Below the pieces are notes generated by a model. That model was given only the letters and a program-made list of their open reading frames with translations, was not told the origin of the DNA and did no database searches. A stretch of DNA of 64,000 bases from Nemertoderma westbladi (lineage: Eukaryota > Animalia > Xenacoelomorpha). Shown in pieces: positions 9,834 to 36,926 of this stretch (positions within the stretch are counted from its first letter, which is position 1; every line of letters starts with the position of its first letter). The stretch is from the NCBI GenBank assembly GCA_032718475.1, contig JAUCBJ010003058.1, forward strand, positions 36,156 to 100,155, in the 5' to 3' direction. The translations under genes and the position numbers were made by a program.

Positions 9834-10042
9834 CTGAATCGAAAGAACTCGTGGAGATTATCCAAACCATTAAAAAACTCAGCCAAGTTTCTCCCAAGTA
9901 CGCGAATCATTTTATCATATCCATATGTTGAAAGAAAACGGACAAAGTCCTTCCCAAATTGTTCTATAATTGCATCTGGAGGTTGATTTAAAACAATAGA
10001 TGCCGCCTGGACCAATCTTGGGATGTATGTTTCACTGTAGAC
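9834..10042 (-). CDS. Soluble guanylate cyclase constant exon 2 (H-NOX, proximal heme His)
   Basis: Acceptor ttttccAG, phase 0. Encodes VYSETYIPRLVQAASIVLNQPPDAIIEQFGKDFVRFLSTYGYDKMIRVLGRNLAEFFNGLDNLHEFFRF(S). Donor GTAATG. Confidence 0.95.
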
Positions 10043-10379
10043 CTGGAAAAAATGAAAACCATTGTAGTAATACAAATTACCCAGTGCAAAAGTACTTTTT
10101 GACGGCATTATTGTATTGCTGACAAATAAAAGGCAATGTAATCTTCTATCCATGCACCTGTTAAACAGTCACCAGAAAAAAATGATGCAGTAGTTGGCGC
10201 CTCCCTGCCTAAGGTGGAAATACTACATTCTTGATTTACATCGTGCCTGTTTCAATTTCATTTATTTGCAATTGCTTAAAAGCTTAAAAGGGCGACTTAA
10301 CACAAACACACACATGGCATTTATTATCAAAGGGTAACATAACATACCTATTACATACGGCAAGTACATAGATAATACC

Positions 10380-10850
10380 GACTGTCACAAGAAATCGAGG
10401 AAATTTCTACCAAGTACCTTACAGATCTAGCCTTTGCTGAATACTTAGGAGCACTGTCAAAATCACCAGATGGAGCCCACAGGCTCCTCCGCTCAATGGG
10501 ACAACTAGTGTTGGTATTTTTGTAAAAATTCCAAAATTTTGACAGTGAACTTTGACGGCCCTCAGGAAATGCCTGATTCTATGAGCATAATCTCTAAGGA
10601 TGGCTTGCTTAAGCATGTGGATAACTTTCGCTACTTGGATCATGGATCCCGAAGTCAGATAAATACCTTTGGATACATAATGAGAAGCCATTGGTTGCAT
10701 TGAATGAGCTACATATAATTTGGAAGTCCCATAAAATAAAACTGAATCTCAAGGTTCGATTATTTAAGGCAGCACTGTGTAACCTATAAGAGAGTCTATC
10801 CTGGGCTTTAACAGCAGAAGACGCCAAATATCAGGATGGCACTTATTACT
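10380..10850 (+). mobile_element. Decayed RTE-group retrotransposon fragment
   Basis: DNA similarity to 5535-5720 and 55060-55520 (ccaagtaccttacagatctag..., tacttggatcatggatccc). Confidence 0.75.
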
Positions 10851-11169
10851 CTTTTTTTTCAAGCCAGCCTAGCATCTCAATGTGCACCTTAGGCATAGGC
10901 ATAGGCAGCTTAGAGGCCAATTAGAGGCATTAGAAGTGTGTTTGGCTGTAATGATAAAATATCAACGAAATTAGATGGCCTCTGTAAATTTGATGTCCAC
11001 ACTGACCTCTTACCTCATATATCTATCTTTAACAGAGAAATATTAAAATGATGTGGGGCGAGTCAAAACTGCGAGCCATCAGCGAACCGTTATAATTATA
11101 CTATGGCCGTTTTCTAAAAGTACGTGTGTGTGTCTGTCGGAAGCCAAGATATAACTAGCCATAGTATAA

Positions 11170-12000
11170 TTATAAATGTTCGAAAGATGGCTTGTAGCTA
11201 AAACTAAACCTAATTTATTTAATATGAATGTAGTTCATATTGCAGGAACCCGAAACCTATGCGCTGATGCCCTTAGTCCTAATATAGATATGATCTATCT
11301 CCTGAACATATCATTATCAATGACGGTACTGAAATCAATGCATGTCTTGACAGCATCAGCCTCCAGTGAAATGCAGGTTTCTTATGGTTGTTCTTGAGAA
11401 TATGGACCATCAAAGTTTTAGCAATTTGAACTAATGAAAACTGCAGATAATGATATAGCTTATATTAAATTTAAGTCCCTATTGCTACACTTACCAACTA
11501 TCTCATTACATTGGGAACAACGTGAATGTGAAGTAATTGCAATACAAATTTTACATGGAAGACCTTGGAGATATGGCTGGTAAGAAGTGTCTAGTTGTTG
11601 CAGATGAACGTACTGGATGGATTTTTATCAAAGAATGTGGAATCCATGCTGACACAAAATGTATCTCTAACAATCTATGAGAAATATTTCAACATTGTGG
11701 TCACCCATTACACTACGTTTATATCATGATGGTGGGCCTCCATTTCATTCGAAATCATCTAAAGATTTTTTTGTGTGTGTGTTTATTATTAGTGATAAAA
11801 CTACATCTCCAAATTTACCACATGCAAAGGGTGTGCAGGAAGCAAAAAACGAATAAAAAACTGCATTGATCTCAAAGGTCAATTAAACCGTGATTAACTG
11901 ACACGTGGTCTAATTTCCCTTTGTTATATCCCTTGCATATTGTGTGATAATACAAGCTAAACCCAAGAAGTAAACTTTTGAATTATGAAGGAACTATGGG
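11170..12000 (+). mobile_element. Highly decayed Gypsy-like LTR retrotransposon remnant (RNase H end / integrase)
   Basis: Scattered across frames: HIAGTRNLCADALS (cf. HIxGxxNxxADALSR), RPW, DGGPPF (cf. SDxGPQF) and SPNLPHAKG (cf. SPxxPQSNG). Confidence 0.6.
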
Positions 12001-12629
12001 AAAATTCGATAATGGCTCTTATCTACATCATAATTGAGTATTTATGGGACCTATTCAACCAATACCATTTGGCGGTGGACCAACAGACACGCCCATGGTA
12101 GTTCCAGTCCCTTTACCCTATTCAGCCTCCCAGGTCTGATGCAGGCACTGTAGTGGTCCCTCAATCAGCTATAATTCCAACTACAGACGATATCCAATGC
12201 GTATTATTATAGTTATCTTTGCATATATTTTTGTGTTCATATTTCAAGTATATAGGCCTACCTTTAGTATTCTATGAGAAAGGCGGTGCTAGACATAATT
12301 AAGTATGTAGTCAGTCAGTGGTCTAATGTCAACAATTGTACGTTTTGTGAATGTTGTTTACGATATAAAATATTAAAGCAATTAAAGTATTAGTATGCCA
12401 AATCCTTGATATATTAGAGAAGACTGGGTGACCTAAGGCAGCTTAAACTGAAAGTAAATAAAATAAAATATAACATAAGTATAACTTTTGTAAGAGACTT
12501 TATAAAATTATTGGGAAATAGAGATGTGGCAGTATTACAGTAGGTACATGTCCGATTATTAGTACTTGGCCACTGGTTTAGGAGAGTATTACTGGGGTTA
12601 ACATATAAGTGTTGGGAAGTAAATTACTA

Positions 12630-12796
12630 TGTACTATTGTACAGGTACAGGTACCGATACCTGTACTATTCTATTGTACAGGTACAGGTACATGTGCAGG
12701 TACAGGTACAGGTACAGGTACAGGTACAGGTACAGGTACAGGTACAGGTACAGGTACATGTACCTGTACTATTCTATTGTACAGGTACCGGTACCT
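12630..12796. repeat. (ACAGGT)n microsatellite with a duplicated tacctgtactattctattg spacer
   Basis: Directly visible. Confidence 0.95.
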
Positions 12797-15700
12797 TTGA
12801 CCAGATATTACTCTATTGATTTTGGTTATTATGTGATTATTATAGTATAGCAGTACTAAGTACTCAGTACATTATTTTTTATCTTCTTCCCTTGGATGGT
12901 CATACCTACGCCAAAAGTGTTGTGTTATATGCAGTGTTAGAATGTAGGCTATAGTTTGGTAGTTTGTTCTTGGTTTCAATTGGAAGTTGCAGTTTCTAGT
13001 TCAGTAGATATAGCCAAATGTAATGAAAGGTGAGGAAAGATTCTATGAAGATCCTATTGTGTGAATGACAGCTACAGCACTGCAGTTGTAGGTATTGTTT
13101 ATCGCCTTCGTTAGCAAAGCACCCGCCTGTATTTCCGAGTGTTTATAGTTTTGATTATAAAATCATGCCTTTGAAACCTGTTCCTTTATCTCAACTGGTA
13201 TCATATAGATTCCTTTTATTTTACTTACTTTTATTGTTTGGTTAGAATATCCAGCCTATGTAACTTGCTTTTCCCTCAATGGGTAATGATAGCCTAGCAT
13301 TTATTGTTTTTATATATTATTATTATTCATGAAAAATGCAGCAATGGACTTGATCCTCAGCGTGTTTCATCAGAGTTGGATGGTCATACTGCGATAATAG
13401 TTGACTGATGTACCAACGTACCGGCAGGCCCACAACAGTAAATTTAGAGCCTGGTTGTGTTCAGTGATTCTGATAAATGAAATGATTAAAGGGAAACTGA
13501 ATCTGAGAACAAGGGACATTATCTGCTTGCAGATTCAGTTCCCCCGACTCAATCCGCTAGCGGACATAGGCCCCCTGTACTGATGCAGTCTGTATCCGCA
13601 GGGGGGCAGCATGCACCAGAATCAGAAGTTACACCAGAACGTCGGACTTCACATGTGCTGTGGAAGATGATTTTTTCAATTGTTTTTCACCTTCGAATTT
13701 TAGGTGACAGACTATCAGACGACAGAGATTGAAACAGCAGTACCCATATGATAATATCTCTTTTTGTCACTCATTCCACGACTAGAACTTCCAACTCCTA
13801 CCAAGAACCAACTAAAAACTATACACTCTGCTGACACTGCAGCACTAAGCTACAACACTGGACCCGTATGTAATTGGTGAAGTTCTTAGTCATATTTTGG
13901 GTGTTTTCCCAAATTCCACCTATGTGGGAATAATATGTGCATCACATGGTGTCTGGTTAACCGTTGCTGGTGTCCTCTACAGAGGCAATGACGATTGTGA
14001 GTAATAATACCAAAACCAATAAAGGACAATATTAGATGGGTAATAACGGTGGATGTAATATTGGCTACCGAGTGAGATCAATGTGTGAGCACTCACGGAG
14101 GTACGATGTGAGAGATGTGTCATATCATTGGATGAATAAACAGAGAGAGCAATTTAGAGTGCCGAGGATAACCTAAACACTACATATTAGTAAATGCACA
14201 AGTAAGGTACTTGCAATATACTGGCCAGCAGTATACTACTCCCGCAATATACTGCCCAGCGATACTGCTTGGCAGTATCGCTGAATTTTAGTCTGAATTT
14301 TAGTCAATATATTTTCAGGTATTTTTTTTCATCGGAGGGAAGGGGGGTGGGGGGAGGGATATTGCAAGGGATTGTTTGGGTTTGCCCCCCCCCCCCCCCC
14401 CCAAGGAATATTCTGGATTAAGTTATACTACACCAAGGAAGGTGGCACTACAGTGTTATTGACCACCCTAGGTTAGGTTGAACCAGTGGCGTAGCCAGCA
14501 TTTAACAAGGGGAGGGTCCAGAGCCAAAACGGGTGGGGGGAATGAATGAAACTAAAAAATGCTAACATATGTGAGGTTTCATAAAGAAACCGACCTACGG
14601 TTGCAAAAATTAAACTTGTTTTTTTTAATGATTCAAATACACATTTTTATGCTGAATCGAACACTGAAAACTGATTTCGAATCCAATAACGTGTTGTCAC
14701 GAAAATGAGTTTTGAAAATTAGCAGTTAGAATTAGCTAAAATACTAATTATAATGCTAATGCTAACTTAGCATTAGCTAATGACCAAGACTTTGAAGTTA
14801 TGAGAGTTTCAAACTTTCCCGCCAATTTTCTGTTTTTGGGGGATTTTTCCAATATAAAATTTTACGATATTTTTAAAAGTAGACATGTAAAAAATTAGGT
14901 ACATGTTAGAATTCAAACACAAGTCAGTATGGCCTTTAGCTAACATGTTTTATTTTTATTATTACTGGAGGTCACTGTGTCTGTCTGTCTGAATGTCTGT
15001 ATTTTTGTTTGTCAAGAAATATTACAAATAAATAACGAAAAAACAATTTTTTTGGTAATGGGGTTTTACTTGCCGATGATTTCAATTACGATGTCAGTTT
15101 TCACTATTTGCCGAATCTAAACTTTTGTCTGCCTGTCAGTCAGTTTATTTGTTATTATGTCTTTCTGCCCGTTAAAATTTAAGAAAGAGCACAAACTATT
15201 TAGAATTTGTGTTAATAGGGTTTTTCTGGGCGGTGATTACATTTAAAATGTAACTTTCCTGACTGGAAGAAATCTAAACGGTCTGTCTGTCTGTCTCCTG
15301 GTCTGTCTGTGTGTTTGTCTGTCAAAAACGAGAAAAAAATAAAATTAACAAAAAATTCAATTTATGAGTTTTATCTATTGTTGTATGTTTATATTTTATA
15401 TAGTTTAGTATACTGTATATATATCTTTTTAAATAATCGATAAGCCCACAATAGCCTTCGGCAATTGAAACACAATGGATTATTTAATAATGAGATTAAT
15501 TTAGTGGTGAACTGCTGACAGCTGACCAGCGGGGTCTGGCCAACCATGTAATAAGGTTGAAATGATTTCCGAAAATATCGAGAATAATAATAACTGTTGT
15601 GTTGAGAAGAAATAGGTTGGTTTCAAGTTAATAGAGTGCTGGGCAAAACTGTTCATCTATCTATCATCAGTTATTTGCACATACCAACGGTGGTTTATCT

Positions 15701-15880
15701 TTACCCCCAAATTTAGTAAGAAATCTGGAGGGATATATGGCATTGACTATTCCTTTTTGTCCATATAATAATATAATAAAAGTAATAAAACTGATAATAA
15801 TTATTTCCAAAAGTGGTTTGGATAGACTTCTATGAATCGAAGGCCAGGACTCAAATCCCATGATGTATTTTCTTACGTAC

Positions 15881-16000
15881 CCCGTGACTGTTGAAGGTCG
15901 CCGTTGAGAGACGTGCCTTTATAAGTATCAACTCATAAACTTTAGCGCCACAACTTTCCACTACTGAACGCAAAGCGAAATCTATTATAACTCCATACAT
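15881..16000 (-). CDS. Soluble guanylate cyclase variable first coding exon 1c (proximal, divergent)
   Basis: 120 nt, ATG at 16000. Encodes MYGVIIDFALRSVVESCGAKVYELILIKARLSTATFNSHG. Phase-0 donor GTACGT joins in frame to exon 2. Confidence 0.85.
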
Positions 16001-17419: not shown

Positions 17420-20400
17420 TACTTGTAATCCTAAATATACTGTATAATGTTTGTGAGAGGTATATTTAGCGAGTTTGCCCCTATTATATGCATTCCTCTT
17501 CTTGGCCCTTTGACTTTCATCAACCACCATCACCGATAGAGGTTCGTGGGGAGTCGACGCTGCCATCTTTTTTGCTTGTTTCCGGTAGGCTCGGTTCGGT
17601 TTAGGGAACTTTATCTCATCCACTCGTCAATATATTTCCCCTTTATAGGCAGGCAATCAAGAACCATTCGTCGTCTCCAAAATCTTGTTGGTAGGAGTAT
17701 AGTCGACGGATTATTTTGGTTGGTCCAAAGAGGATGGCGCTCTGAATAAGATACTGATAGCTGAGAGGGAGGTTCTTCCTCTTTGCAAGCTCCTCAGGGA
17801 ACATAAAGTATCCCCGGTACATATCTTTCCCATCGTTTGCTACGTTATATCGGTCCCTTGTTTTGAGATGCGAACTAGCAAACGTCTCGAAAATTACCAT
17901 ATTTCTGGTAGCCAGTTTATCCGTTGCAGGTCACTTGATATGGCCTCTTCCTCCACGTGTAAGTCTATGAAACCCACAGGAGTCGCATACTGAACTAAGC
18001 AATGAGCAAACCCAGACATTGTGCCTCGATCGTGTGCAGTATGTGCATTGTGCAGTACAACATTCCTAGCAAAGCTAGACATGGTTCAGCGATCATGCAC
18101 ATTGTATAGCACAGACATTGTTCCGATCCGCAGTTATTGCAGACATTCCAGGTGTCAGGAAATCTGTAGTATACTGGGATTTTGTTCCCAACATTGTACA
18201 TTGTACATCCAATATCGCTGCTTTATGTTGGCCATAATCCAGTTCTGACCAGCATGCAGGTTATCTTCATGGCATTGTCACACTAGTAGTCTGGCTAGAT
18301 GGGAGTTTCCAGGAAGAATTGCTGGGTACTTTATTTCATATTCCACTGGTGCGTTTGCCATGTGGGTAATTATTAGAATCACTCTATCATTGCCCATAGT
18401 GGGCCTTAGTTGATAAATAGGACTATTGGGTTTGATGGTTTTACCCTTCACTAACTGCTCCCACTCATCCAAAAATACTCCGGATGTATCGTGTAATACA
18501 TCACTCAGCTGTGGTGAGCTCCTGGTTATTGCGCTTTACCATCGGGACACTGAGTCTCCATCTCATAAAGTTCCAGAGTGCTAATACATAGTTTGTGAGT
18601 TTTTTCATGTCCATGATCCAAAGATGTCCGTGATCTTCCCTTCTTTGACCTTCTCGATCTCTTTGTCATCCTCAGTATACTTCCCACTGTCTTTTCCGGA
18701 TAAAATTTAATGCTCCAGGTCAGTTGGGTTTGATTGAGGAACTCGGGCCCATCTAGCCACATCTGATGTTGCCTAATTCATGTGGGGTAGCTCTATGGCT
18801 AGCAATGTCTGTGGGGTTCTGTTTTCCAGCGACTTGGTGCCATTGTTCTCTGTCCATGCACTGTTTGATCTCTGTGGCATGGTTCACTACAAATGTCGTG
18901 TGTCATTGGGATGGGGGTGGAGGTAATAGAGAATGATGCTGGAGTCCACCCAGAAATGTTCCGACTGTATCTTAATCCACAGCTCTCTCAGGATCATTCG
19001 ATTTTGACGAATGGTCCATACAGCTGCTTGAAGCTCCAGTCTCGGTACCTTTGCCACGAACTCTCCCAATACTGTCTTGGCTTTGGTAAATATGAAACTG
19101 GTATCTATCTCACCATCCTCATTTCTCCTCCTCAGGTATGTGAAGACCCGTATCTAGGTGTTTGATGCATCTGAGAAGGTGTGTAGCTGGTAAAAATCAC
19201 CCAGGAAAAAACGGACGCGGGACTCTCATTAGTTTTAACTATTCTAGGTTCTTCACCCACACTTCCCATTTTTTTCGTAGAACCAGGGGTAACTCCTGGT
19301 CCCATCCTAGACCATTTATCCACATCTCCTTTATTCGGTTGATTCCAGCTAGGGTGACTGGGGTAACGAAATTTAATGGATCGAATATCGAACTCCATAA
19401 GGAGAGGCATCCTCTTTTAGTGAGTGGTCTGTCGACGTGGGTATATTTAAAATGGAAGCTATCATAATGGATATTCCACTCTGTGTTACAGATACTCTGT
19501 GTTTGTCTCTCTCGGAGTACATTTTTTCTAGTTTGATCTCTTCTGGAATTGCTCCATTAGCTCCATGTTGCGTGATCAGAACTTTACCAAGGGGAATCCT
19601 CCCGTTCCAAGGCAGTTGACCATACCCATGGCTAAGTCATATGCATCATCCAACCTCTCGGCCCCAGAGCATCCAATCTACGTAGAAACAGCATCTGATG
19701 TTATCGATAACATTGTGGGGTATTTCATTTCAAACATGTCAACTGTTTTCTTTATCATGGCGCTGCAGACTACAGGGGAATTCTTTGCCCCAAATACCCA
19801 TATATGTATATATATAATATATGCAATATTTCAACGTCTTTTAACATACGATTGTTGATTTCTGATATAGTTAGTGCTTGATTCATCCAACATATCCTCA
19901 GGCTGTTGGAGTCTATTGGTAGTGTCCATACCTGATGGAACATCACCTTTATATTGAATGTGAAAGTAATATTGTTCTCGGAAGTGCAGCAGTACGCTGG
20001 CAAGTAAACTATATATGTTAGGCCTGGTAATACAGTTGGCTGTTCAGGGATTCTCCTTGAAAGGTAGCTGTGGTGTCGTTAACTACTCTGATCTTTCCAG
20101 CCTTACATTTTTCATTCACATAGTTGGTGGGCAGGTAATAAGTGTGAGTGGACCCTTCTAGTTCTGTCGTCGGCACCCTCTCCATTAAACCATATGACAA
20201 ATACCCGGTTATGACCCGGTTCAATGTAATGGGCTTTAATCTCTGGCTGTATACTCAGCTGTCACAATATTCCCTTTAATCGAGTGAGCGCCATACTCGA
20301 ATAATTAACCATTGTTTTATCTAATTGTTTCCACAACATCCGTGATCTTCAATGCCCATCAACAAACTCAGGTTGTTCCATAAGCATCATGCAGTATTGG

Positions 20401-21867: not shown

Positions 21868-23228
21868 AGTGGCTTTATAAACATTTGATGTGGCGGATGT
21901 TGTTCAATCATAATTAAAACGAATAACATTTTATTATGGAAATATTTCGAACACATAAAAACAAAAATTTGTAAGTTTATATTATTTACTCCAAATCAAA
22001 TTCGAGGCATCCGACAGCAACTATCTTCGAAATGCTACATACTTAAAATGAAAATGCTTCATTCAACACCATAATGTACTATTCCAGCTAGTACCACAGA
22101 AAGTCATTAAGTTGACAGGAAGATATTACTCTAGCAGTTAACACCTACAATCATACATTGTCACAGTCCATTAATAAGAAATCCATTAAAATAGACAGTT
22201 ATTCTGAGTTCGGGTTCCGCGGTGTTGTTTCAGTGTATATTACGTGCTAAATGTACACAATAAATTGATCAGTAAAATTCACCAAAGATTGTCGCTATGG
22301 AGAATAAATAAACAGCAGTGGGAACTATTGATGTAATTTAGATGCGACGCGAGTTGTTTGTTTATTATTTACGTCGTCAAGTTATATAAAGTAAACCACT
22401 ACCATCGATTCCATCGAGACTATTAATTCAATTGTTGCCAACACGTGGTTTCATGACAATGTTCCTGGCAAATGTTAAAGGTCTCCTTTCGCATGTAGAC
22501 TGGTGGGAAAACTGGCAGAAAACTGATAACGATGGCTAGCAGACAAGATAGATAGATACTTCTTTTTATTCAAAAAATCCGATTGTTTACACTCACAGAG
22601 ACAGCCTAATAGTAAAAAACTATTGTTGCTGATAATGGGTGGAATAAAGCGTCAATATTTATGGCGTTATTTAGGTTCTACGTAACATAATTAGTAGCAC
22701 ATACCTTTCCACAAAGAAACAAGAAACACTTACACCAGCAATTCGAACATTAAAGTAAGCCTTTTTAATTTAATTTAATGTAATTGATTTATCTCTATCG
22801 TATTTTCTACAGAAATGGTATTAATTTTGGTTAGAAATTTCTAGTATGTTTTTTTATTTCGCGAATTTTATTATTTAGTGCATTCCATAATAGGCGAGTA
22901 CAGCTAACCAGTATACTATTGTATCCAATGATTTTATGGGTTTTATGAATTTTTACACCAAAAAGTAATTTTATTTATTTATATGTGGAGAGGTTAGTAA
23001 AGGTAGTGTTAAATTATTTATACACAGTAGTGATAAGTTGTAGAAATTTTAGTGCAAAGAAATCTCTAAGAGCTTGTAGATGTGGCAGTCCAGTGGTTTA
23101 TCTTATTTTTTTACAGTAAATAATACGGAGGTCATAATTTTATATTTTGTCCAGCCCATGCAGGATATCCTTGTTTGTATCCATGAATGCCATGCAGTGA
23201 AGAGATTAGTGTGCAGCAGTAGTTGTGT

Positions 23229-26200
23229 AGTGGTCGGAGAGGTGCTTTATATATAGTTAGTTAGCTAGTGGTCGGAGAGTTGCTCTGTATATAGTTAATT
23301 AGCTAGTGGTCGGAGAGTTGCTCTGTATATAGTTAGTTAGCTAGTGGTCGGAGAGTTGCTCTGTATATAGTTAGTTAGCTAGTGGTCGGAGAGTTGCTCT
23401 GTATATAGTTAGTTAGCTAGTGGTCGGAGAGTTGCTTTGTATATAGTTAGTTAGCTAGTGGTCGGAGAGTTGCTTTGTATATAGTTAGTTAGCTAGTGGT
23501 CGGAGAGTTGCTTTGTATATAGTTAGTTAGCTAGTGGTCGGAGAGTTGCTCTGTATATAGTTAATTAGCTAGTGGTCGGAGAGTTGCTCTGTATATAGTT
23601 AGTTAGCTAGTGGTCGGAGAGTTGCTCTGTATATAGTTAGTTAGCTAGTGGTCGGAGAGTTGCTTTGTATATAGTTAGTTAGCTAGTGGTCGGAGAGTTG
23701 CTTTGTATATAGTTAGTTAGCTAGTGGTCGGAGAGTTGCTTTGTATATAGTTAGTTAGCTAGTGGTCGGAGAGTTGCTTTGTATATAGTTAGTTAGCTAG
23801 TGGTCAGAGAGTTGCTCTGTATATAGTTAGTTAGCTAGTGGTCGGAGAGTTGCTCTGTATATAGTTAGTTAGCTAGTGGTCGGAGAGTTGCTTTGTATAT
23901 AGTTAGTTAGCTAGTGGTCTGAGAGTTGCTTTGTATATAGTTAGTTAGCTAGTGGTCGGAGAGTTGCTTTGTATATAGTTAGTTAGCTAGTGGTCGGAGA
24001 GTTGCTTTGTATAAAGTTAGTTAGCTAGTGGTCGGACAGTTGCTTTGTATATAGTTAGTTAGCTAGTGGTCGGAGAGTTGTTCTGTATATAGTTAGTTAG
24101 CTAGTGGTCGGAGAGTTGCTCTGTATATAGTTAGTTAGCTAGTGGTCGGAGAGTTGCTCTGTATATAGTTAGTTAGCTAGTGGTCGGAGAGTTGCTCTGT
24201 ATATAGTTAGTTAGCTAGTGGTCGGAGGGTTGCTTTGTATATAGTTAGTTAGCTAGTGGTCGGAGAGTTGCTCTGTATATAATTAGTTAGCTAGTGGTCG
24301 GAGAGTTGCTCTGTATATAGTTAGTTAGCTAGTGGTCGGAGAGTTGTTCTGTATATAGTTAGTTAGCTAGTGGTCGGAGAGTTGTTCTGTATATAGTTAG
24401 TTAGCTAGTGGTCGGAGAATTGTTCTGTATATAGTTAGTTAGCTAGTGGTCGGAGAATTGTTCTGTATATAGTTAGTTAGCTAGTGGTCGGAGAATTGTT
24501 CTGTATATAGTTAGTTAGCTAGTGGTCGGAGAGTTGTTCTGTATATAGTTAGTTAGCTAGTGGTCGGAGAATTGTTCTGTATATAGTTAGTTAGCTAGTG
24601 GTCGGAGAGTTGTTCTGTATATAGTTAGTTAGCTAGTGGTCGGAGAATTGTTCTGTATATAGTTAGTTATCTAGTGGTCGGAGAATTGTTCTGTATATAG
24701 TTAGTTAGCTAGTGGTCGGAGAGTTGTTCTGTATATAGTTAGTTAGCTAGTGGTCGGAGAATTGTTCTGTATATAGTTAGTTAGCTAGTGGTCGGAGGGT
24801 TGCTTTGTATATAGTTAGTTAGCTAGTGGTCGGAGAGTTGCTCTGTATATAGTTAGTTAGCTAGTGGTCGGAGAGTTGTTCTGTATATAGTTAGTTAGCT
24901 AGTGGTCGGAGAGTTGTTCTGTATATAGTTAGTTAGCTAGTGGTCGGAGAATTGTTCTGTATATAGTTAGTTAGCTAGTGGTCGGAGAGTTGTTCTGTAT
25001 ATAGTTAGTTAGCTAGTGGTCGGAGAATTGTTCTGTATATAGTTAGTTAGCTAGTGGTCGGAGAGTTGTTCTGTATATAGTTAATTAGCTAGTGGTCGGA
25101 GAGTTGCTTTGTATATAGTTAATTAGCTAGTGGTCGGAAAGTTGCTCTGTATATAATTAGTTAGCTAGTGGTCGGAGAGTTGCTCTGTATATAGTTAGTT
25201 AGCTAGTGGTCGGAGAGTTGTTCTGTATATAGTTAGTTAGCTAGTGGTCGGAGAGTTGTTCTGTATATAGTTAGTTAGCTAGTGGTCGGAGAGTTGTTCT
25301 GTATATAGTTAGTTAGCTAGTGGTCGGAGAGTTGTTCTGTATATAGTTAGTTAGCTAGTGGTCGGAGAGTTGTTCTGTATATAGTTAGTTAGCTAGTGGT
25401 CGGAGAGTTGCTCTGTATATAGTTAGTTAGCTAGTGGTCGGAGAGTTGCTCTGTATATAATTAGTTCGCTAGTGGTCGGAGAGTTGTTCTGTATATAGTT
25501 AGTTAGCTAGTGGTCGGAGAGTTGTTCTGTATATAGTTAGTTAGCTAGTGGTCGGAGAGTTGTTCTGTATATAGTTAGTTAGCTAGTGGTCGGAGAGTTG
25601 TTCTGTATATAGTTAGTTAGCTAGTGGTCGGAGAGTTGTTCTGTATATAGTTAGTTAGCTAGTGGTCGGAGAGTTGTTCTGTATATAGTTAGTTAGCTAG
25701 TGGTCGGAGAGTTGTTCTGTATATAGTTAGTTAGCTAGTGGTCTAAGAGTTGCTCTGTATATAGTTAGTTAGCTAGTGGTCGGAGAGTTGCTCTGTATAT
25801 AGTTAGTTAGCTAGTGGTCGGAGAGTTGTTCTGTATATAGTTAGTTAGCTAGTGGTCGGAGAGTTGTTCTGTATATAGTTAGTTAGCTAGTGGTCGGAGA
25901 GTTGTTCTGTATATAGTTAGTTAGCTAGTGGTCGGAGAGTTGTTCTGTATATAGTTAGTTCGATAGTGGTCGGAGAGTTGTTCTGTATATAGTTAGTTAG
26001 CTAGTGGTCGGAGAGTTGTTCTGTATATAGTTAGTTAGCTAGTGGTCTAAGAGTTGCTCTGTATATAGTTAGTTAGCTAGTGGTCGGAGAGTTGCTCTGT
26101 ATATAATTAGTTAGCTAGTGGTCGGAGAGTTGCTCTGTATATAGTTAGTTAGCTAGTGGTCGGAGAGTTGTTCTGAATATAGTTAGTTAGCTAGTGGTCG

Positions 26201-29200
26201 GAGAGTTGTTCTGTATATAGTTAGTTAGCTAGTGGTCGGAGAGTTGTTCTGTATATAGTTAGTTAGCTAGTGGTCGGAGAATTGTTCTGTATATAGTTAG
26301 TTAGCTAGTGGTCGGAGAGTTGTTCTGTATATAGTTAATTAGCTAGTGGTCGGAGAGTTGCTTTGTATATAGTTAGTTAGCTAGTGGTCGGAGAGTTGCT
26401 CTGTATATAATTAGTTAGCTAGTGGTCGGAGAGTTGCTCTGTATATAGTTAGTTAGCTAGTGGTCGGAGAGTTATTCTGTATATAGTTAGTTAGCTAGTG
26501 GTCGGAGAGTTGTTCTGTATATAGTTAGTTAGCTAGTGGTCGGAGAGTTGTTCTGTATATAGTTAGTTAGCTAGTGGTCGGAGAGTTGTTCTGTATATAG
26601 TTAGTTAGCTAGTGGTCGGAGAGTTGTTCTGTATATAGGTAGTTAGCTAGTGGTCGGAGAGTTGCTCTGTATATAGTTAGTTAGCTAGTGGTCGGAGAGT
26701 TGCTCTGTATATAATTAGTTCGCTAGTGGTCGGAGAGTTGTTCTGTATATAGTTAGTTAGCTAGTGGTCGGAGAGTTGTTCTGTATATAGTTAGTTAGCT
26801 AGTGGTCTAAGAGTTGCTCTGTATATAGTTAGTTAGCTAGTGGTCGGAGAGTTGCTCTGTATATAGTTAGTTAGCTAGTGGTCGGAGAGTTGCTCTGTAT
26901 ATAATTAGTTCGCTAGTGGTCGGAGAGTTGTTCTGTATATAGTTAGTTAGCTAGTGGTCGGAGAGTTGTTCTGTATATAGTTAGTTAGCTAGTGGTCTAA
27001 GAGTTGCTCTGTATATAGTTAGTTAGCTAGTGGTCGGAGAGTTGCTCTGTATATAATTAGTTCGCTAGTGGTCGGAGAGTTGTTCTGTATATAGTTAGTT
27101 CGCTAGTGGTCGGAGAGTTGTTCTGTATATAGTTAGTTAGCTAGTGGTCGGAGAGTTGTTCTGTATATAGTTAGTTAGCTAGTGGTCTAAGAGTTGCTCT
27201 GTATATAGTTAGTTAGCTAGTGGTCGGAGAGTTGCTCTGTATATAATTAGTTAGCTAGTGGTCGGAGAGTTGCTCTGTATATAGTTAGTTAGCTAGTGGT
27301 CGGAGAGTTGCTCTGAATATAGTTAGTTAGCTAGTGGTCGGAGAGTTGCTCTGTATATAGTTAGTTAGCTAGTGGTCGGAGAGTTGTTCTGTATATAGTT
27401 AGTTAGCTAGTGGTCGGAGAGTTGTTCTGAATATAGTTAGTTAGCTAGTGGTCGGAGAGTTGCTCTGTATATAGTTAGTTAGCTAGTGGTCGGAGAGTTG
27501 CTCTGTATATAGTTAGTTAGCTAGTGGTCGGAGAGTTGTTCTGTATATAGTTAGTTAGCTAGTGGTCGGAGAATTGTTCTGTATATAGTTAGTTAGCTAG
27601 TGGTCGGAGAGTTGTTCTGTATATAGTTAATTAGCTAGTGGTCGGAGAGTTGCTTTGTATATAGTTAGTTAGCTAGTGGTCGGAGAGTTGTTCTGTATAT
27701 AGTTAATTAGCTAGTGGTCGGAGAGTTGCTCTGTATATAGTTAGTTAGCTAGTGGTCGGAGAGTTGTTCTGTATATAGTTAGTTAGCTAGTGGTCGGAGA
27801 ATTGTTCTGTATATAGTTAGTTAGCTAGTGGTCGGAGAGTTGTTCTGTATATAGTTAATTAGCTAGTGGTCGGAGAGTTGCTTTGTATATAGTTAGTTAG
27901 CTAGTGGTCGGAGAGTTGTTCTGTATATAGTTAATTAGCTAGTGGTCGGAGAGTTGTTCTGTATATAGTTAGTTAGCTAGTGGTCGGAGAGTTGTTCTGT
28001 ATATAGTTAGTTAGCTAGTGGTCGGAGAATTGTTCTGTATATAGTTAGTTAGCTAGTGGTCGGAGAGTTGTTCTGTATATAGTTAATTAGCTAGTGGTCG
28101 GAGAGTTGCTTTGTATATAGTTAGTTAGCTAGTGGTCGGAGAGTTGCTCTTTATATAATTAGTTAGCTAGTGGTCGGAGCGTTGCTCTGTATATAGTTAG
28201 TTAGCTAGTGGTCGGAGAGTTGTTCTGTATATAGTTAGTTAGCTAGTGGTCGGAGAGTTGTTCTGTATATAGTTAGTTAGCTAGTGGTCGGAGAGTTGTT
28301 CTGTATATAGTTAGTTAACTAGTGGTCGGAGAGTTGTTCTGTATATAGTTAGTTAGCTAGTGGTCGGAGAGTTGTTCTGTATATAGTTAGTTAGCTAGTG
28401 GTCGGAGAGTTGCTCTGTATATAGTTAGTTAGCTAGTGGTCGGAGAGTTGCTCTGTATATAATTAGTTCGCTAGTGGTCGGAGAGTTGTTCTGTATATAG
28501 TTAGTTAGCTAGTGGTCGGAGAGTTGTTCTGTATATAGTTAGTTAGCTAGTGGTCTAAGAGTTGCTCTGTATATAGTTAGTTAGCTAGTGGTCGGAGAGT
28601 TGCTCTGTATATAGTTAGTTAGCTAGTGGTCGGAGAGTTGCTCTGTATATAATTAGTTCGCTAGTGGTCGGAGAGTTGTTCTGTATATAGTTAGTTAGCT
28701 AGTGGTCGGAGAGTTGTTCTGTATATAGTTAGTTAGCTAGTGGTCTAAGAGTTGCTCTGTATATAGTTAGTTAGCTAGTGGTCGGAGAGTTGCTCTGTAT
28801 ATAATTAGTTCGCTAGTGGTCGGAGAGTTGTTCTGTATATAGTTAGTTAGCTAGTGGTCGGAGAGTTGTTCTGTATATAGTTAGTTAGCTAGTGGTCTAA
28901 AAGTTGCTCTGTATATAGTTAGTTAGCTAGTGGTCGGAGAGTTGTTCTGTATATAGTTAGTTAGCTAGTGGTCGGAGAGTTGTTCTGTATATAGTTAGTT
29001 AGCTAGTGGTCGGAGAGTTGCTCTGTATATAGTTAGTTAGCTAGTGGTCGGAGAGTTGCTCTGTATATAGTTAGTTAGCTATTGGTCGGAGAGTTGCTCT
29101 GTATATAGTTAGTTAGCTAGTGGTCGGAGAGTTGTTCTGTATATAGTTAGTTAGCTAGTGGTCGGAGAGTAGCTCTGTATATAGTAAGTTAGTGGTCGGA

Positions 29201-32200
29201 GAGTTGCACTGTATATAGTTAGTTAGCTAGTGGTCGGAGAGTTGCTCTGTATATAGTTAGTTAGCTAGTGGTCGGAGAGTTGTTCTGTATATAGTTAGTT
29301 AGCTAGTGGTCGGAGAGTTGCTCTGTATATAGTTAGTTAGCTAGTGGTCGGAGAGTTGTTCTGTATATAGTTAGTTAGCTAGTGGTCGGAGAGTTGCTCT
29401 GTATATAGTTAGTTAGCTAGTGGTCGGAGAGTTGTTCTGTATATAGTTAGTTAGCTAGTGGTCGGAGAGTTGTTCTGTATATAGTTAGTTAGCTAGTGGT
29501 CGGAGAGTTGTTCTGTATATAGTTAGTCAGCTAGTGGTCGGAGAGTTATAGTTAGTTAGCTAGTGGTCGGAGAGTTGCTCTGTATATAATTAGTTAGCTA
29601 GTGGTCGGAGAGTTGTTCTGTATATAGTTAGTTAGCTAGTGGTCGGAGAGTTGCTTTGTATATAGTTAGTTAGCTAGTGGTCGGAGAGTTGTTCTGTATA
29701 TAGTTAGTTAGCTAGTGGTCGGAGAGTTGTTCTGTATATAGTTAGTTAGCTAGTGGTCGGAGAGTTGCTCTGTATATAGTTAGTTAGCTAGTGGTCGGAG
29801 AGTTGTTCTGTATATAGTTAGTTAGCTAGTGGTGTGAGAGTTGTTCTGTATATAGTTAGTTAGCTAGTGGTCTAAGATTTGTTCTGTATATAGTTAGTTA
29901 GCTAGTGGTCGGAGAGTTGCTTTGTATATAGTTAGTTAGCTAGTGGTCGGAGAGTTGCTCTGTATATAGTTAGTTAGCTAGTGGTCGGAGAGTTGCTCTG
30001 TATATAGTTAGTTAGCTAGTGGTCGGAGAGTTGTTCTGTATATAATTAGTTAGCTAGTGGTCGGAGAGTTGTTCTGTATATAGTTAGTTAGCTAGTGGTC
30101 GGAGAGTTGCTTTGTATATAGTTAGTTAGCTAGTGGTCGGAGAGTTGCTTTGTATATAGTTAGTTAGCTAGTGGTCGGAGAGTTGCTCTGTATATAGTTA
30201 GTTAGCTAGTGGTCGGAGAGTTGCTCTGTATATAGTTAGTTAGCTAGTGGTCGGAGAGTTGTTCTGTATATAGTTAGTTAGCTAGTGGTCGGAGAGTTGC
30301 TTTGTATATAGTTAGTTAGCTAGTGGTCGGAGAGTTGCTTTGTATATAGTTAGTTAGCTAGTGGTCGGAGAGTTGCTCTGTATATAGTTAGTTAGCTAGT
30401 GGTCGGAGAGTTGCTCTGTATATAGTTAGTTAGCTAGTGGTCGGAGAGTTGTTCTGTATATAATTAGTTAGCTAGTGGTCGGAGAGTTGTTCTGTATATA
30501 GTTAGTTAGCTAGTGGTCGGAGAGTTGTTCTGTATATAGTTAGTTAGCTAGTGGTCGGAGAGTTGCTTTGTATATAGTTAGTTAGCTAGTGGTCGGAGAG
30601 TTGCTCTGTATATAGTTAGTTAGCTAGTGGTCGGAGAGTTGCTCTGTATATAGTTAGTTAGCTAGTGGTCGGAGAGTTGTTCTGTATATAATTAGTTAGC
30701 TAGTGGTCGGAGAGTTGTTCTGTATATAATTAGTTAGCTAGTGGTCGGAGAGTTGTTCTGTATATAGTTAGTTAGCTAGTGGTCGGAGAGTTGTTCTGTA
30801 TATAGTTAGTTAGCTAGTGGTCTAAGAGTTGTTCTGTATATAGTTAGTTAGCTAGTGGTCGGAGAGTTGCTTTGTATATAGTTAGTTAGCTAGTGGTCGG
30901 AGAGTTGCTCTGTATATAGTTAGTTAGCTAGTGGTCGGAGAGTTGCTCTGTATATAGTTAGTTAGCTAGTGGTCGGAGAGTTGTTCTGTATATAATTAGT
31001 TAGCTAGTGGTCGGAGAGTTGTTCTGTATATAGTTAGTTAGCTAGTGGTCGGAGAGTTGTTCTGTATATAGTTAGTTAGCTAGTGGTCGGAGAGTTGCTC
31101 TGTATATAGTTAGTTAGCTAGTGGTCGGAGAGTTGTTCTGTATATAGTTAGTTAGCTAGTGGTCGGAGAGTTGTTCTGTATATAGTTAGTTAGCTAGTGG
31201 TCGGAGAGTTGTTCTGTATATAGTTAGTTAGCTAGTGGTCGGAGAGTTGTTCTGTATATAGTTAGTTAGCTAGTGGTCGGAGAGTTGCTCTGTATATAGT
31301 TAGTTAGCTAGTGGTCGGAGAGTTGCTCTGTATATAATTAGTTAGCTAGTGGTCGGAGAGTTGTTCTGTATATAGTTAGTTAGCTAGTGGTCGGAGAGTT
31401 GCTTTGTATATAGTTAGTTAGCTAGTGGTCGGAGAGTTGTTCTGTATATAGTTAGTTAGCTAGTGGTCGGAGAGTTGCTCTGTATATAATTAGTTAGCTA
31501 GTGGTCGGAGAGTTGTTCTGTATATAGTTAGTTAGCTAGTGGTCGGAGAGTTGCTTTGTATATAGTTAGTTAGCTAGTGGTCGGAGAGTTGTTCTGTATA
31601 TAGTTAGTTAGCTAGTGGTCGGAGAGTTGTTCTGTATATAGTTAGTTAGCTAGTGGTCGGAGAGTTGCTTTGTATATAGTTAGTTAGCTAGTGGTCGGAG
31701 AGTTGTTCTGTATATAGTTAGTTAGCTAGTGGTCGGAGAGTTGCTCTGTATATAATTAGTTAGCTAGTGGTCGGAGAGTTGTTCTGTATATAGTTAGTTA
31801 GCTAGTGGTCGGAGAGTGGTTCTGTATATAGTTAGTTAGCTAGTGGTCGGAGAGTTGTTCTGTATATAGTTAGTTAGCTAGTGGTCGGAGAGTTGCTCTG
31901 TATATAGTTAGTTAGCTAGTGGTCGGAGAGTTGCTCTGTATATAATTAGTTAGCTAGTGGTCGGAGAGTTGTTCTGTATATAGTTAGTTAGCTAGTGGTC
32001 GGAGAGTTGTTCTGTATATAGTTAGTTAGCTAGTGGTCGGAGAGTTGTTCTGTATATAGTTAGTTAGCTAGTGGTCGGAGAGTTGTTCTGTATATAGTTA
32101 GTTAGCTAGTGGTCGGAGAGTTGTTCTGTATATAGTTAGTTAGCTAGTGGTCGGAGAGTTGCTCTGTATATAGTTAGTTAGCTAGTGGTCGGAGAGTTGC

Positions 32201-33800
32201 TCTGTATATAATTAGTTAGCTAGTGGTCGGAGAGTTGTTCTGTATATAGTTAGTTAGCTAGTGGTCGGAGAGTTGCTTTGTATATAGTTAGTTAGCTAGT
32301 GGTCGGAGAGTTGTTCTGTATATAGTTAGTTAGCTAGTGGTCGGAGAGTTGCTCTGTATATAATTAGTTAGCTAGTGGTCGGAGAGTTGTTCTGTATATA
32401 GTTAGTTAGCTAGTGGTCGGAGAGTTGCTTTGTATATAGTTAGTTAGCTAGTGGTCGGAGAGTTGTTCTGTATATAGTTAGTTAGCTAGTGGTCGGAGAG
32501 TTGCTTCTGTATATAGTTAGTTAGCTAGTGGTCGGAGAGTTGTTCTGTATATAGTTAGTTAGCTAGTGGTCGGAGAGTTGCTCTGTATATAGTTAGTTAG
32601 CTAGTGGTCGGAGAGTTGTTCTGTATATAGTTAGTTAGCTAGTGGTCGGAGAGTTGTTCTGTATATAGTTAGTTAGCTAGTGGTCGGAGAGTTGTTCTGT
32701 ATATAGTTAGTTAGCTAGTGGTCGGAGAGTTGTTCTGTATATAGTTAGTTAGCTAGTGGTCGGAGAGTTGTTCTGTATATAGTTAGTTAGCTAGTGGTCG
32801 GAGAGTTGCTCTGTATATAGTTAGTTAGCTAGTGGTCGGAGAGTTGTTCTGTATATAGTTAGTTAGCTAGTGGTCGGAGAGTTGTTCTGTATATAGTTAG
32901 TTAGCTAGTGGTCGGAGAGTTGTTCTGTATATAGTTAGTTAGCTAGTGGTCGGAGAGTTGTTCTGTATATAGTTAGTTAGCTAGTGGTCGGAGAGTTGTT
33001 CTGTATATAGTTAGTTAGCTAGTGGTCGGAGAGTTGCTCTGTATATAGTTAGTTAGCTAGTGGTCGGAGAGTTGTTCTGTATATAGTTAGTTAGCTAGTG
33101 GTCGGAGAGTTGTTCTGTATATAGTTAGTTAGCTAGTGGTCGGAGAGTTGCTCTGTATATAATTAGTTAGCTAGTGGTCGGAGAGTTGTTCTGTATATAG
33201 TTAGTTAGCTAGTGGTCGGAGAGTGGTTCTGTATATAGTTAGTTAGCTAGTGGTCGGAGAGTTGTTCTGTATATAGTTAGTTAGCTAGTGGTCGGAGAGT
33301 TGCTCTGTATATAGTTAGTTAGCTAGTGGTCGGAGAGTTGCTCTGTATATAATTAGTTAGCTACTGGTCGGAGAGTTGTTCTGTATATAGTTAGTTAGCT
33401 AGTGGTCGGAGAGTTGTTCTGTATATAGTTAGTTAGCTAGTGGTCGGAGAGTTGTTCTGTATATAGTTAGTTAGCTAGTGGTCGGAGAGTTGTTCTGTAT
33501 ATAGTTAGTTAGCTAGTGGTCGGAGAGTTGTTCTGTATATAGTTAGTTAGCTAGTGGTCGGAGAGTTGCTCTGTATATAGTTAGTTAGCTAGTGGTCGGA
33601 GAGTTGCTCTGTATATAATTAGTTAGCTAGTGGTCGGAGAGTTGTTCTGTATATAGTTAGTTAGCTAGTGGTCGGAGAGTTATTCTGTATATAGTTAGTT
33701 AGCTAGTGGTCGGAGAGTTGCTCTGTATATAATTAGTTAGCTAGTGGTCGGAGAGTTGCTCTGTATATAGTTAGTTAGCTTTGTGTTGGTCGGCAGTTGC
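23229..33800. repeat. Satellite array, 38-bp unit (agttagttagctagtggtcggagagttgYtYtgtatat), ~278 copies, ~10.5 kb
   Basis: Uninterrupted head-to-tail copies with few variant positions. Copy number estimated as length/38. Confidence 0.99.
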
Positions 33801-34322
33801 CCTTTGATTAGTCTTGAGCATGTAACTGCGTGAGTCTTTCTGTCAGATATATATTTTATATGAGCCTCCCAGTTCAGTTGATTGTCGGTTATTAATTACA
33901 CGTAAATATGTAAATTTTGAACTTTGGTTAACACGAATAACTAACACGCTATAACACGCATGCTTCAATTTTGATCTACTACTAGGATCGGCATGCTGCA
34001 TTGCAGCTGCATTTTTAAGAATGCTGTGCTTCAATTTTGATCGCATGTCATGAACATTGAAAGATTCGCATTTATTTCCAGTGTTTCTTTAACTAACTAT
34101 TATTAGTAATTATTACATATTATATTATAATTAATGTTAGATATAATGGGCCTATGTATATATTATATATAATTGGTCTATATTACATATTATAATATAT
34201 TATAGTTATATATAATAGGTCTATATATTATAATGGAATGGACGTGATGTGGTTTTATTAATTTACATAAAGGAATTGACGACTATACATGTATGAAATT
34301 CAGCCTCTCCTATAGATATTAC

Positions 34323-34442
34323 CTTGTGGGAGGTGTAGCTGTGATGTAGAGCTCCAGATTTGCACCATATTTCTTCCCATTTATCTTCGCCAGCTGAGTC
34401 TTTAATGCTCAATATTATTATCTCAATAAGTAACCCATACAT
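34323..34442 (-). CDS. Soluble guanylate cyclase variable first coding exon 1b
   Basis: 120 nt, context tagcaacaATG. Encodes MYGLLIEIIILSIKDSAGEDKWEEIWCKSGALHHSYTSHK. Phase-0 donor AAG|GTAATA. Confidence 0.88.
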
Positions 34443-34577
34443 TGTTGCTACTAATCATTGAGTTTTTGGTTATAATTATAGTTATATAACAGTTCCTATT
34501 AGCGTAAACATCACAAACAACGACTGTAATGTGCATAAAGTTGGTGCGCGCCACGACGATTCTAACTAACTACAGTA

Positions 34578-34838
34578 TCTATACCTATAAAAATCAAATT
34601 CTCTCTCTCTGTGTTCGAACTCCTCCAAAACGGGCAGAGGGATTGCGCTGGAACTTGGCATGTGTGTATAACTTCAACCAGCGGTCGTTATAGGCCACTT
34701 TTCGAAAAGTTTAATTCACGTTCGGTACCGGTACTAAGTACCGGTACGTCAGTAGGCCTATACCGGTACCAGTACACCAGTAGGCCTATGCCGGTAGCGG
34801 GAAATACCGGGTAACATGCCTCGGGTATTGCCTGCTAG
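34578..34838 (+). mobile_element. Short non-autonomous Helitron-like element
   Basis: Starts A|TCtatacctataaaa and ends in an imperfect GC-rich subterminal hairpin followed by CTAG|T. Confidence 0.6.
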
Positions 34839-35789
34839 TATCCTATAAAAATAGAGTGTAAATGACCCACCTCTATTTTGGCCAAGAAAATGTTATCGGA
34901 AGAACAACTAAGGGTAGAGGTTTATAAGAAAGATCTACATTGTTACCAGAAAATCTGAAAATCGTTTGGCACAGGACGGCACACACACAACAATGCTAAC
35001 ATGGCAATTTGGGGGAAATTGCTACGCTATAAATAAAAACAAATAAACAATGAACTTGTGTTTATTTCTATAACCGGTTTCTATTTGATCTGACAGTATC
35101 TTATAAGACTACTGTACTAACCATATGGCAACGAACCACCAAATGGCGATAATTCTAAATTATATAAATTCTCCAAAAATTAGGTTGCAAACATTTTATT
35201 AACATTCGTTAATTTAAGGAAAATGGATAAAACAGCAGCAGCAAACAATTCACAGATTTACAGATCCATGCAAGAAGATCAAATACTAGCAAATGGCAAC
35301 CGCTAGCGGTACCAGTTGCTGGGTTACTCGGTTATGGATAGTACAATGGAGCTTCGCAGCCAATAGGTTATTTATATTCATATTTTCAAATCATGCAGGG
35401 GCTATAGTGTGTGCTGGGTGTCACATACGTTGCTCTAATTATTTGTAGTTCACTGTATTATAGAGATAAACTTGATTTAATCTGCACGGTTGATGATTAA
35501 TAAGGCAATTCAAAGTAGGCTTGGTGAATTGTATTCAGCTAATGCCATGCCATGCCATCTTATTCTTATTCAAGGAATACTAAGTAAAAAAACCCGAGAG
35601 ATATTGGTTATGTACATTAATAAAAAAAACACCTGAGCCTTATTTATCACCCTGTATTGTATACCTGCAAATTGTATTTCCTTTAATGGCATGTCCGGTT
35701 AAAATCACTCTTGAATAAACAAGTTAAGTGATCAGTAAACGTGTGAAACAAAAAACACCGGAGGCAACCGGTACGCTCCTCTCTCTTGG

Positions 35790-35965
35790 CTGTTACCTAT
35801 ATGGCAGAGAAGGCGCCACGCTAACTCCCAAGGGTCAACACTCCGTAAATATCCAACTCTTTTTCCTTTACTCCCTAAGCAGAAACCAGGTGACCATATC
35901 GTTGGGTTGGCGTACCAGTTACGAAATTGTAACTGGCGCGGAACGGGATCGAACCCGGGACCCAT
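35790..35965 (-). mobile_element. Probable tRNA-derived SINE fragment
   Basis: The minus strand reads gggtcccGGGTTCGATCCCgttcc (B box), followed by the hairpin ccagttac...gtaactgg. Confidence 0.45.
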
Positions 35966-36406
35966 GAATACTCGGGAAGAGTGTGTGAGTACTGTGAAGA
36001 GTTTATCCCAAAAAGTTTTTAATAAATAAATCATTTAATTCGTAATCTAAAAATCATGCATTAGAATTTTTCTAAGGTAAATAATGCAAGTAAAGTTAAA
36101 ATGCTCTAGAATATTATAGCTATATTCTGTTACATCTTCACATTAATTAAATTTTAAGTAAAATACAGTTGCATTGAAAAGCAAACTTCCGGAATTAAAG
36201 ATAAAATTCAGTATAATATATAAATGAAAACATCGCCATATTAAAACTACTACCCATGGTTTTCATTACCGGCCTGTGGCGCTGTACGCTATAGCCTCTA
36301 TTGGTAGTAACTTCCACCATCTAGCTAACGATAATAACCACAACTAACACTATACTGCATATTTATGTTCACGTGCTGGTTAGTTAACTTAACCTTATTA
36401 TTAATT

Positions 36407-36588
36407 ATAGTAGGATTTAGTCTAGAAGTGGAAAAAATTGGAAAGACATGACTGGGGTTTGAACCAGCACGATGCGGTACAGTTATGAACAGGCCTATTA
36501 GGCCGAAACTGAATCTTATAGGGATCGATGGTTCAACCTCTCGTGATATTAATCCATCTTTTTTTCCTCTTGAACAAAATCCTACTAT
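36407..36588. mobile_element. Small degenerate palindromic MITE
   Basis: atagtaggattt at the left end and aaatcctactat at the right end, with further internal symmetry. Confidence 0.45.
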
Positions 36589-36806
36589 ATTATTTATTAC
36601 AGTTCGATGATCAGCCCAACCACAATGTAATACAAAAAATTATTTCAATTTGAGCGAATGTGGGAGATTCATTACCATTTACGAAATCGTTTGAGGTGCA
36701 TAAAATACACATTTTGTCCTAAATATTAAAATATAATTATATAGTGACTCTACAAGAGTGAGTGACTGTACATAACTATGTCCTATGTTGCTGTTCTCTA
36801 GTTTAC

Positions 36807-36926
36807 CTTATGGGATGAGAAGCTATGAAGATGAGCTCCAGATTTGGCGCGAATTTCTTCCCATTTGTCTTCACCAGCTGATTCCTTTACGCTCATTATA
36901 ATGAGCTCTATGAGTAAACCGTACAT
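36807..36926 (-). CDS. Soluble guanylate cyclase variable first coding exon 1a (distal)
   Basis: 120 nt, context tagcaacaATG. Encodes MYGLLIELIIMSVKESAGEDKWEEIRAKSGAHLHSFSSHK. Phase-0 donor AAG|GTAAAC. Classic H-NOX N-terminus (MYG...G...WE.I...G...F). Confidence 0.9.

Follow-up and report, generated by a model that had tools for sequence, protein, structure and literature searches.

At the UGT1 and clustered protocadherin loci, each variable unit codes for at least one whole domain. Homologous 5′ coding exons arranged in tandem before one constant set of exons have been described for UGT1, GCNT2 and the clustered protocadherins (PMC3325998, PMC1885805), and in the sDscam genes of chelicerates 5′ cassettes are placed on constant exons, with Ig7 or Ig7-8 as the variable unit (PMC4835542). 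Among human substitutions derived from tandem exon duplication, 39 of 236 are N-terminal (PMC8373072), and for human soluble guanylate cyclase (sGC) the accessible text of PMC11432225 describes splice variants with insertions or missing segments and no homologous exon swap. Here, we analyze a stretch of 64,000 nucleotides from Nemertoderma westbladi (Xenacoelomorpha; assembly GCA_032718475.1, contig JAUCBJ010003058.1, positions 36,156 to 100,155 of the forward strand), hereafter called the window and numbered from its first letter, that contains three homologous first coding exons (1a, 1b and 1c) of an sGC gene upstream of a single set of constant exons. Our preferred reading of this genomic sequence, to which we give about an even chance, is that one Gyc88E-like sGC gene has three alternative first exons that would each have a 5′ start of their own and would all be spliced to one exon 2.

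The exons of this gene that we found in the window are the following:

36807..36926, minus strand: first coding exon 1a, encoding H-NOX residues 1-40 with helices A and B; the nearest of the three to the family consensus.
34323..34442, minus strand: first coding exon 1b, identical to 1a at 30 of 40 residues, with Trp26 and Tyr36.
15881..16000, minus strand: first coding exon 1c, with 15 of 40 residues as in 1a; it keeps M1, Y2, G3, G18, F36 and H39 and has V4, I5, F8, A9 and C17.
9834..10042, minus strand: constant exon 2, encoding residues 41-109 with the proximal His104.
8443..8633, minus strand: constant exon 3, with the YxSxR motif and the distal Tyr143.
7069..7210, minus strand: constant exon 4, encoding the end of the H-NOX domain and the start of the PAS-like HNOBA part.
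4410..4530, minus strand: constant exon 5, encoding PAS-like sequence; the last exon of the sGC gene found in the window.

The original prediction, made from the sequence of the window, had placed three 40-codon first exons on the minus strand at 36926-36807, 34442-34323 and 16000-15881, and their coordinates, reading frames and donors were all confirmed. Each is 120 nt (40 codons) long, begins with ATG, is free of stops and ends in a phase-0 GT donor (1a AAG/GTAAAC, 1b AAG/GTAATA, 1c GGG/GTACGT) that is similar to the donors of exons 2-5, and together they form a tandem series of homologous first coding exons on one strand, with their own ATGs and with donors of the same phase. Exons 2-5 are bounded by AG/GT and remain in frame over 221 codons, and joining 1a, 1b or 1c to them gives 261 stop-free codons in each case, over a distance to the acceptor at 10042 of 26.8 kb, 24.3 kb and 5.8 kb, respectively. 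Exon shape alone proves little, because the minus strand between 10200 and 42700 contains six open frames composed of ATG, 120 nt and GT, three of which are unrelated. A full-length profile built from 29 homologs was run over the 2409 stop-to-stop fragments of the window and recovered exons 2-5 once each, with nothing else above 6.7 bits (iE 0.24, 20859-20785); exons 4-5 match profile positions 174-264, the first part of the PAS-like HNOBA region. The further claim of one exon 2 (10042), with no copies of exons 2-5 among the first exons, is thereby borne out for the window, in which the downstream constant set is single.

Searches with a profile of 51 distinct homolog N-termini, from which the exons of the window had been excluded, scored 1a at 47.6, 1b at 35.4 and 1c at 11.1 bits with a next best score of 1.8, and a broader profile of 109 N-termini gave 50.4, 38.0 and 18.4 bits. 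Because the N-terminal profile scores lie so far above the next best one, the homology of the three exons goes beyond chance. Pfam HNOB (PF07700) matches exon 2 (E 1e-17) as well as 1a (0.0013) and 1b (0.011). The best named matches of exon 2, at 54% identity, are the acoel proteins XP_063724279.1 and XP_075264519.1, annotated as “soluble guanylate cyclase 88E-like”, which both share the RVSF motif of exon 3. The heme motif is present in constant exons 2-3 (proximal His104 and Tyr133-x-Ser135-x-Arg137), and the distal Tyr143 of constant exon 3 aligns with Ile145 of beta-1 and with a Tyr of Drosophila Gyc88E, whose sequence was taken for this register from the supplement of PMC6821139. Judged by its N-terminal H-NOX domain, proximal His, YxSxR motif, distal Tyr and the start of an HNOBA region, the gene is a Gyc88E-like (atypical, O2-type) sGC. 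Gyc88E-type enzymes respond to O2. A distal Tyr alone gave full-length sGC no O2 binding, according to the available part of PMC9592903. A search of the protein collection (best match 54-66%) and of the 50% representatives (best 63%) turned up no product of this gene, and the supplements of PMC6821139 contain an acoel alpha-type sGC and none of the motifs of the window. Of the 59 related loci whose N-terminus was matched, 15 show a GT at the position between codons 40 and 41 while most others are contiguous there, and this comparison indicates that the intron after codon 40 is old.

A common origin of the three exons is suggested by states that they share and that are rare in 111 homologs, such as Ser12 (2/111) and Ser38 (5/111). 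Residue 8 is hydrophobic in all three (L, I and F, each found in 0/111 homologs), and residue 17 is Ala or Cys (0/111). FastTree grouped 1a, 1b and 1c with support 1.0 and a long branch for 1c in an alignment of 114 rows. We picture, conditionally, an ancestral first exon that was bounded by the old intron between codons 40 and 41 and was copied in tandem, with 1c as the oldest or fastest-changing copy and 1a and 1b as a later pair.

Both 1a and 1b appear to have been kept for their coding function. Their differences number 6, 4 and 17 at codon positions 1, 2 and 3, with a dS of 1.28 and a dN of 0.14, and the null model in which one copy has been neutral since duplication was matched by 14 of 6889 retained simulations, or by 11 of 269 when the branch length that favors it most is taken. 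These comparisons indicate that 1a and 1b are under purifying selection. The 300-nt flanks of 1a, 1b and 1c align no better than shuffles in six of six comparisons (p 0.16-0.76), and the copies are therefore old, with the coding part alone kept. The silent sites of 1c are saturated. It retains six of the eight columns that are invariant in 51 homologs (p 0.02), and neutral decay to the distance of 1c left an open frame with six invariant residues in 2 of 10873 runs (with indels and the donor outside the model), so that the reading frame of 1c shows selection as well.

The integrity of the assembly was assessed with DNA contigs from two studies (X1 and X3; X1 is possibly the source of the assembly), whose sequence is identical to the window over 34200-34604, 34814-35850 and 35828-37300. 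Exons 1a and 1b and most of the 2364-nt spacer between them are real, and the covered part contains no exon 2. Since no exon 2 was found in this spacer and the contigs of the two studies agree, 1a and 1b cannot each own a gene body. Around exon 2, X1 contig sequence (9465-10766) has one letter that departs from the window, and X3 contig sequence (9465-11080) has none. Contig word depth is 23-40 over 1a/1b, 3.5 in the bin of 1c and 78-122 over exons 2-5 and the neighboring gene for X1, and 6-9, 1.1 and 29-42 for X3; it is not equivalent to copy number, given that the filter drops contigs and that library types are not recorded, and it was not used as evidence. The stretch between 1b and 1c contains a repeat array:

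23228..33780, no strand assigned: 38-bp satellite, 278 copies with 96% matches, between 1b and 1c.

The satellite has a strong strand skew, and its unit variants shift in local higher-order blocks along the array, which fits a resolved array without proving it. It sits in what would be the intron leading from 1a and 1b to exon 2. Sharing of one exon 2 by at least 1a and 1b is highly probable in our judgment, even with a second gene body hidden at the satellite, and the use of all three first exons on the exon 2 at 10042 is still fairly probable.

Several observations weigh against one gene with three used first exons, and some of them concern how the exons are linked. Neither the repeat at 34604-34814 nor the 10.5-kb satellite is spanned by a contig, so that the link from 1a and 1b to the exon 2 at 10042 rests on the assembly. 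Profile searches of the 64-kb window found no sGC exon after exon 5, which, if left unspliced, would run into a stop after six codons. The original prediction of one soluble guanylate cyclase is consequently upheld in the window for the H-NOX domain and the start of the PAS-like part, and the cyclase part, whose exons would lie outside, is inferred from the family because no exon past exon 5 is present. IQ-TREE, run on 24 of the 114 rows picked to include the best matches of 1c, joined 1a and 1b (95) and placed 1c elsewhere with a bootstrap of 59; an approximately unbiased (AU) test did not reject the three-exon clade (p 0.38; 5000 replicates, below the number advised by the program) and rejected neither placement of 1c, all of these trees resting on 40 residues, too few to settle where it belongs. 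A tree that sets 1c apart from 1a and 1b would suit a history with a second, paralogous gene body as the owner of 1a and 1b, one that the assembly dropped, collapsed or misjoined at the satellite or that lies on another haplotype, so that the exon 2 at 10042 would have 1c as its sole first exon. The satellite that separates 1b from 1c is the one plausible place for a hidden misjoin, and copies of exon 2 were sought in the window alone. We nevertheless regard this history as quite unlikely: the window is free of N, the satellite variants are arranged block-wise as in a resolved array, the contigs over exon 2 agree with the window almost to the letter, and the rare residues are common to all three exons. 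If it were true, a two-way choice between 1a and 1b would remain.

Other such observations concern the exons themselves. There is no Pfam HNOB match for 1c, which lacks Glu19, Trp22 and Arg26 and has a dN of 0.94-1.09 to 1a and 1b. In 1b, Arg26 and Phe36 are replaced by Trp26 (Arg in 49/51 homologs) and Tyr36 (Phe in 51/51), and residue 27 is Cys. The tests of selection average over history and are blind to a recent loss of use, and late relaxation of 1b or 1c is possible on the sequence evidence. These departures, together with the very long 1c branch (2.06) and its loss of near-invariant residues, would be expected under a turnover of first exons, with new ones gained over time, one or two still in use and 1c or 1b persisting as a recently relaxed or silent leftover. 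We consider such turnover unlikely, given that all three exons have kept the ATG, the exact length, an open frame and the donor, which is rare in neutral simulations (14/6889; 2/10873), and that some of the departures are tolerated elsewhere, with Tyr36 in 5 and Leu26 in 14 of 111 homologs. The choice among the exons could also be made by splicing. The alignment of 1a with 1b starts 9 nt above the ATG and includes a common TAG five bases above it, a possible acceptor; a 1a-1b joining at its AG would be out of frame and meet a stop at codon 50, and candidate acceptors are also found at 81-255 nt above the ATGs. Because of this TAG and the stop that ends a 1a-1b joining, splice choice from a shared leader has to be weighed, in which 1a, 1b and 1c would be internal exons selected from a shared non-coding upstream exon and 1a-1b joins would be removed by nonsense-mediated decay. 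The common AG has no pyrimidine tract in 1b, however, and is absent as such in 1c, the bases that 1a and 1b share may be translation-start context, and human N-terminal homologous swaps are attributed to alternative promoters in the part of PMC8373072 available to us; we thus assign a low probability to choice by splicing. No pyrimidine-rich acceptor is present within 80 nt above the ATG of 1a, 1b or 1c, as expected for first exons. Contigs of an RNA-like run (X4) do not cover exon 2, exon 4, 1a, 1b or 1c, X5 yielded a single record in 34200-37300 that lies in repeat, and X6 yielded none on 200-16400; all of these are uninformative on expression.

Under the preferred reading of three alternative first exons on one gene, each of them would have its own predicted transcription start, and the acceptor at 10042 would be joined to the donor of the exon with which a given transcript begins. 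Heme ligand, YxSxR motif and distal Tyr would be common to the products, as would the cyclase if the gene extends past the window. In a model of the acoel ortholog, helix A spans residues 2-17 and helix B residues 19-29, and exon 1 ends in a loop before the helix at 43-58; that residues 1-40 contain helix alphaA, which the original prediction had given as established knowledge, agrees with this model. Tunnel 1 is lined by positions 5, 9, 12, 13 and 17 and tunnel 3 by position 4, in the numbering of Nostoc and Ka H-NOX proteins (PMC7356049, available in part), and our family aligns with the Nostoc protein free of gaps across the stretch encoded by exon 1. With pocket effects judged from such published residue lists, positions 4-5-9-12-13-17 read L-L-I-S-V-A in 1a, L-L-I-S-I-A in 1b and V-I-A-S-V-C in 1c. 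Exons 1a and 1b hence differ at one of the six positions (13, V/I) and 1c differs from 1a at four, and from these residues we expect 1a and 1b to be nearly equivalent and 1c to be distinct. It is 1c, rather than the difference between 1a and 1b, that would change the tunnel lining. All three exons have lost the aromatics that are usual at positions 12 and 17, which would make tunnel 1 of this lineage wider. The positions with the greatest bearing on ligand choice are constant. The earlier proposal of three different distal pockets around the same heme ligand was overstated: the constancy of the ligand stands, as His104, YxSxR and Tyr143 are all in constant exons, but 1a and 1b are nearly alike and only 1c alters the lining.

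Under the preferred reading, 1a and 1b would encode near-equivalent sensors that differ mainly in the place or time of their making, and the altered helix A lining of 1c would probably change the rates of gas entry and exit. That promoter choice switches the gas tunnel, with all three exons used by cell or stage and with measurably different O2, NO or CO kinetics for 1c, which carries Val4, Ile5, Phe8 and Ala9, is a tentative and somewhat unlikely extension of this idea. It would amount to the tuning of a gas sensor by the swap of exons smaller than a domain, with heme ligand, distal Tyr and cyclase unchanged, and one gene would do what flies and nematodes do with gene families. The weight of helix A and the tunnels relative to the proximal His and distal Tyr in H-NOX ligand kinetics is disputed (PMC7356049, PMC9592903), and the accessible part of PMC9592903 ranks proximal strain above distal access for sGC. 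Three natural N-termini on a constant body would be a ready-made controlled experiment on this question. Isoforms of this kind are missed by gene predictors because the exons are just 120 nt long and lie up to 27 kb from exon 2.

The surroundings of the gene contain other genes and remnants of mobile elements:

42715..44785, minus strand: L-rhamnose mutarotase-like gene with two exons, both matched by Pfam rhaM; ends read by eye.
280-1242, plus strand: last exon of a hydroxyacylglutathione hydrolase gene (glyoxalase II / PNKD-like), matched by Pfam HAGH_C.
19242..19556, minus strand: broken BEL/Pao retrotransposon fragment between 1b and 1c (Pfam Peptidase_A17, E 2.6e-11).
39283-39948, 49541-50272 and 5283-5738, no strand given: reverse transcriptase fragments of broken retroelements.

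The rhaM-like gene bounds the locus about 5.8 kb above 1a. L-rhamnose mutarotase is mainly a microbial sugar enzyme, and the gene found here carries an intron in an animal genome. On the other side, an X4 contig covers 333-1242 of the HAGH_C gene plus 178 letters that are not in the window, and if the sGC gene continues, the HAGH_C gene would be nested in or overlap its fifth intron. Another X4 contig, unspliced and 930 nt long (3669-4598), spans sGC exon 5 with both flanks and ends 27 nt past a plus-strand AATAAA at 4566, with DNA contigs running on to 4919; it may reflect an antisense transcript across exon 5 whose 3′ end lies here, seen in one run only. Regions of broken retroelements extend over 17600-21200, 38469-40325, 49190-52211 and 5283-5741. 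In sGC intron 2, inverted arrays of a 15-bp unit (8806-8956 and 9323-9523) flank about 370 nt, like a miniature inverted-repeat element.

Among sGC genes, we found no second case. The literature searched (partial coverage, with few subscription journals) yielded no sGC with alternative or duplicated first exons and no acoel sGC so described, in agreement with the original prediction that no such arrangement was known; the accessible text of bioRxiv 10.64898/2026.09.15.751659 does not cover atypical sGCs. The supplementary table of PMC8373072 lists no GUCY gene (the controls GCNT2 and GNAO1 are present; UGT1A is not listed). In 228 homolog proteins, 26 groups have an identical exon 2 stretch, six of which vary in residues 1-40 by one to three substitutions, and none of the 26 swaps a homologous first exon. 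None of 80 related loci, mostly short contigs, has a surplus first exon. Both controls are weak, since exons of this kind escape annotation and the loci are mostly short. No fused tandem first exons were detected in hits with long N-terminal extensions among 278 proteins. Two of the 278 (P0132 and P0136) have two whole H-NOX starts per predicted protein and represent tandem domains or fused gene models. The 69-kb contig JAAUXT010029281.1 carries two sGC-like genes in the same orientation (L003 and L069), a whole-gene tandem duplication of the kind that is the usual route to sensor diversity.

Acoel and other Gyc88E-type sGCs have an H-NOX domain with a proximal His, YxSxR and a Tyr at the position of beta-1 Ile145, as does the gene described here, but three first exons were not seen in those that we compared. 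Human sGC splice variants, as far as PMC11432225 is accessible, resemble our case in that isoform diversity touches the H-NOX domain. The locus shares with UGT1, GCNT2, the protocadherins and sDscam the tandem homologous first coding exons before one constant set, and this part of the predicted likeness to UGT1 and the protocadherins stands. The variable unit, by contrast, is no whole domain: it comprises 40 residues, namely the helices at 2-17 and 19-29 plus a loop, and thus two helices of one domain of 190 residues, in three copies with predicted promoters, where UGT1, the protocadherins and sDscam vary a whole domain or more from promoters that have been shown. In this respect it is closer to the human events of PMC8373072, which, in the part of that study available to us, likewise exchange short homologous N-termini that derive from duplicated 5′ coding exons and are supported by transcripts, while the sGC case is known from genomic sequence. 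By this analogy, the locus would work like a variable-first-exon cluster, although an N-terminal tandem exon substitution is the better category for it, and a gas receptor of an early-branching bilaterian would join the genes with a variable-first-exon layout. The layout is known as a class; what appears new, by the searches made here, is its occurrence in an sGC, where it would swap two helices of one domain.

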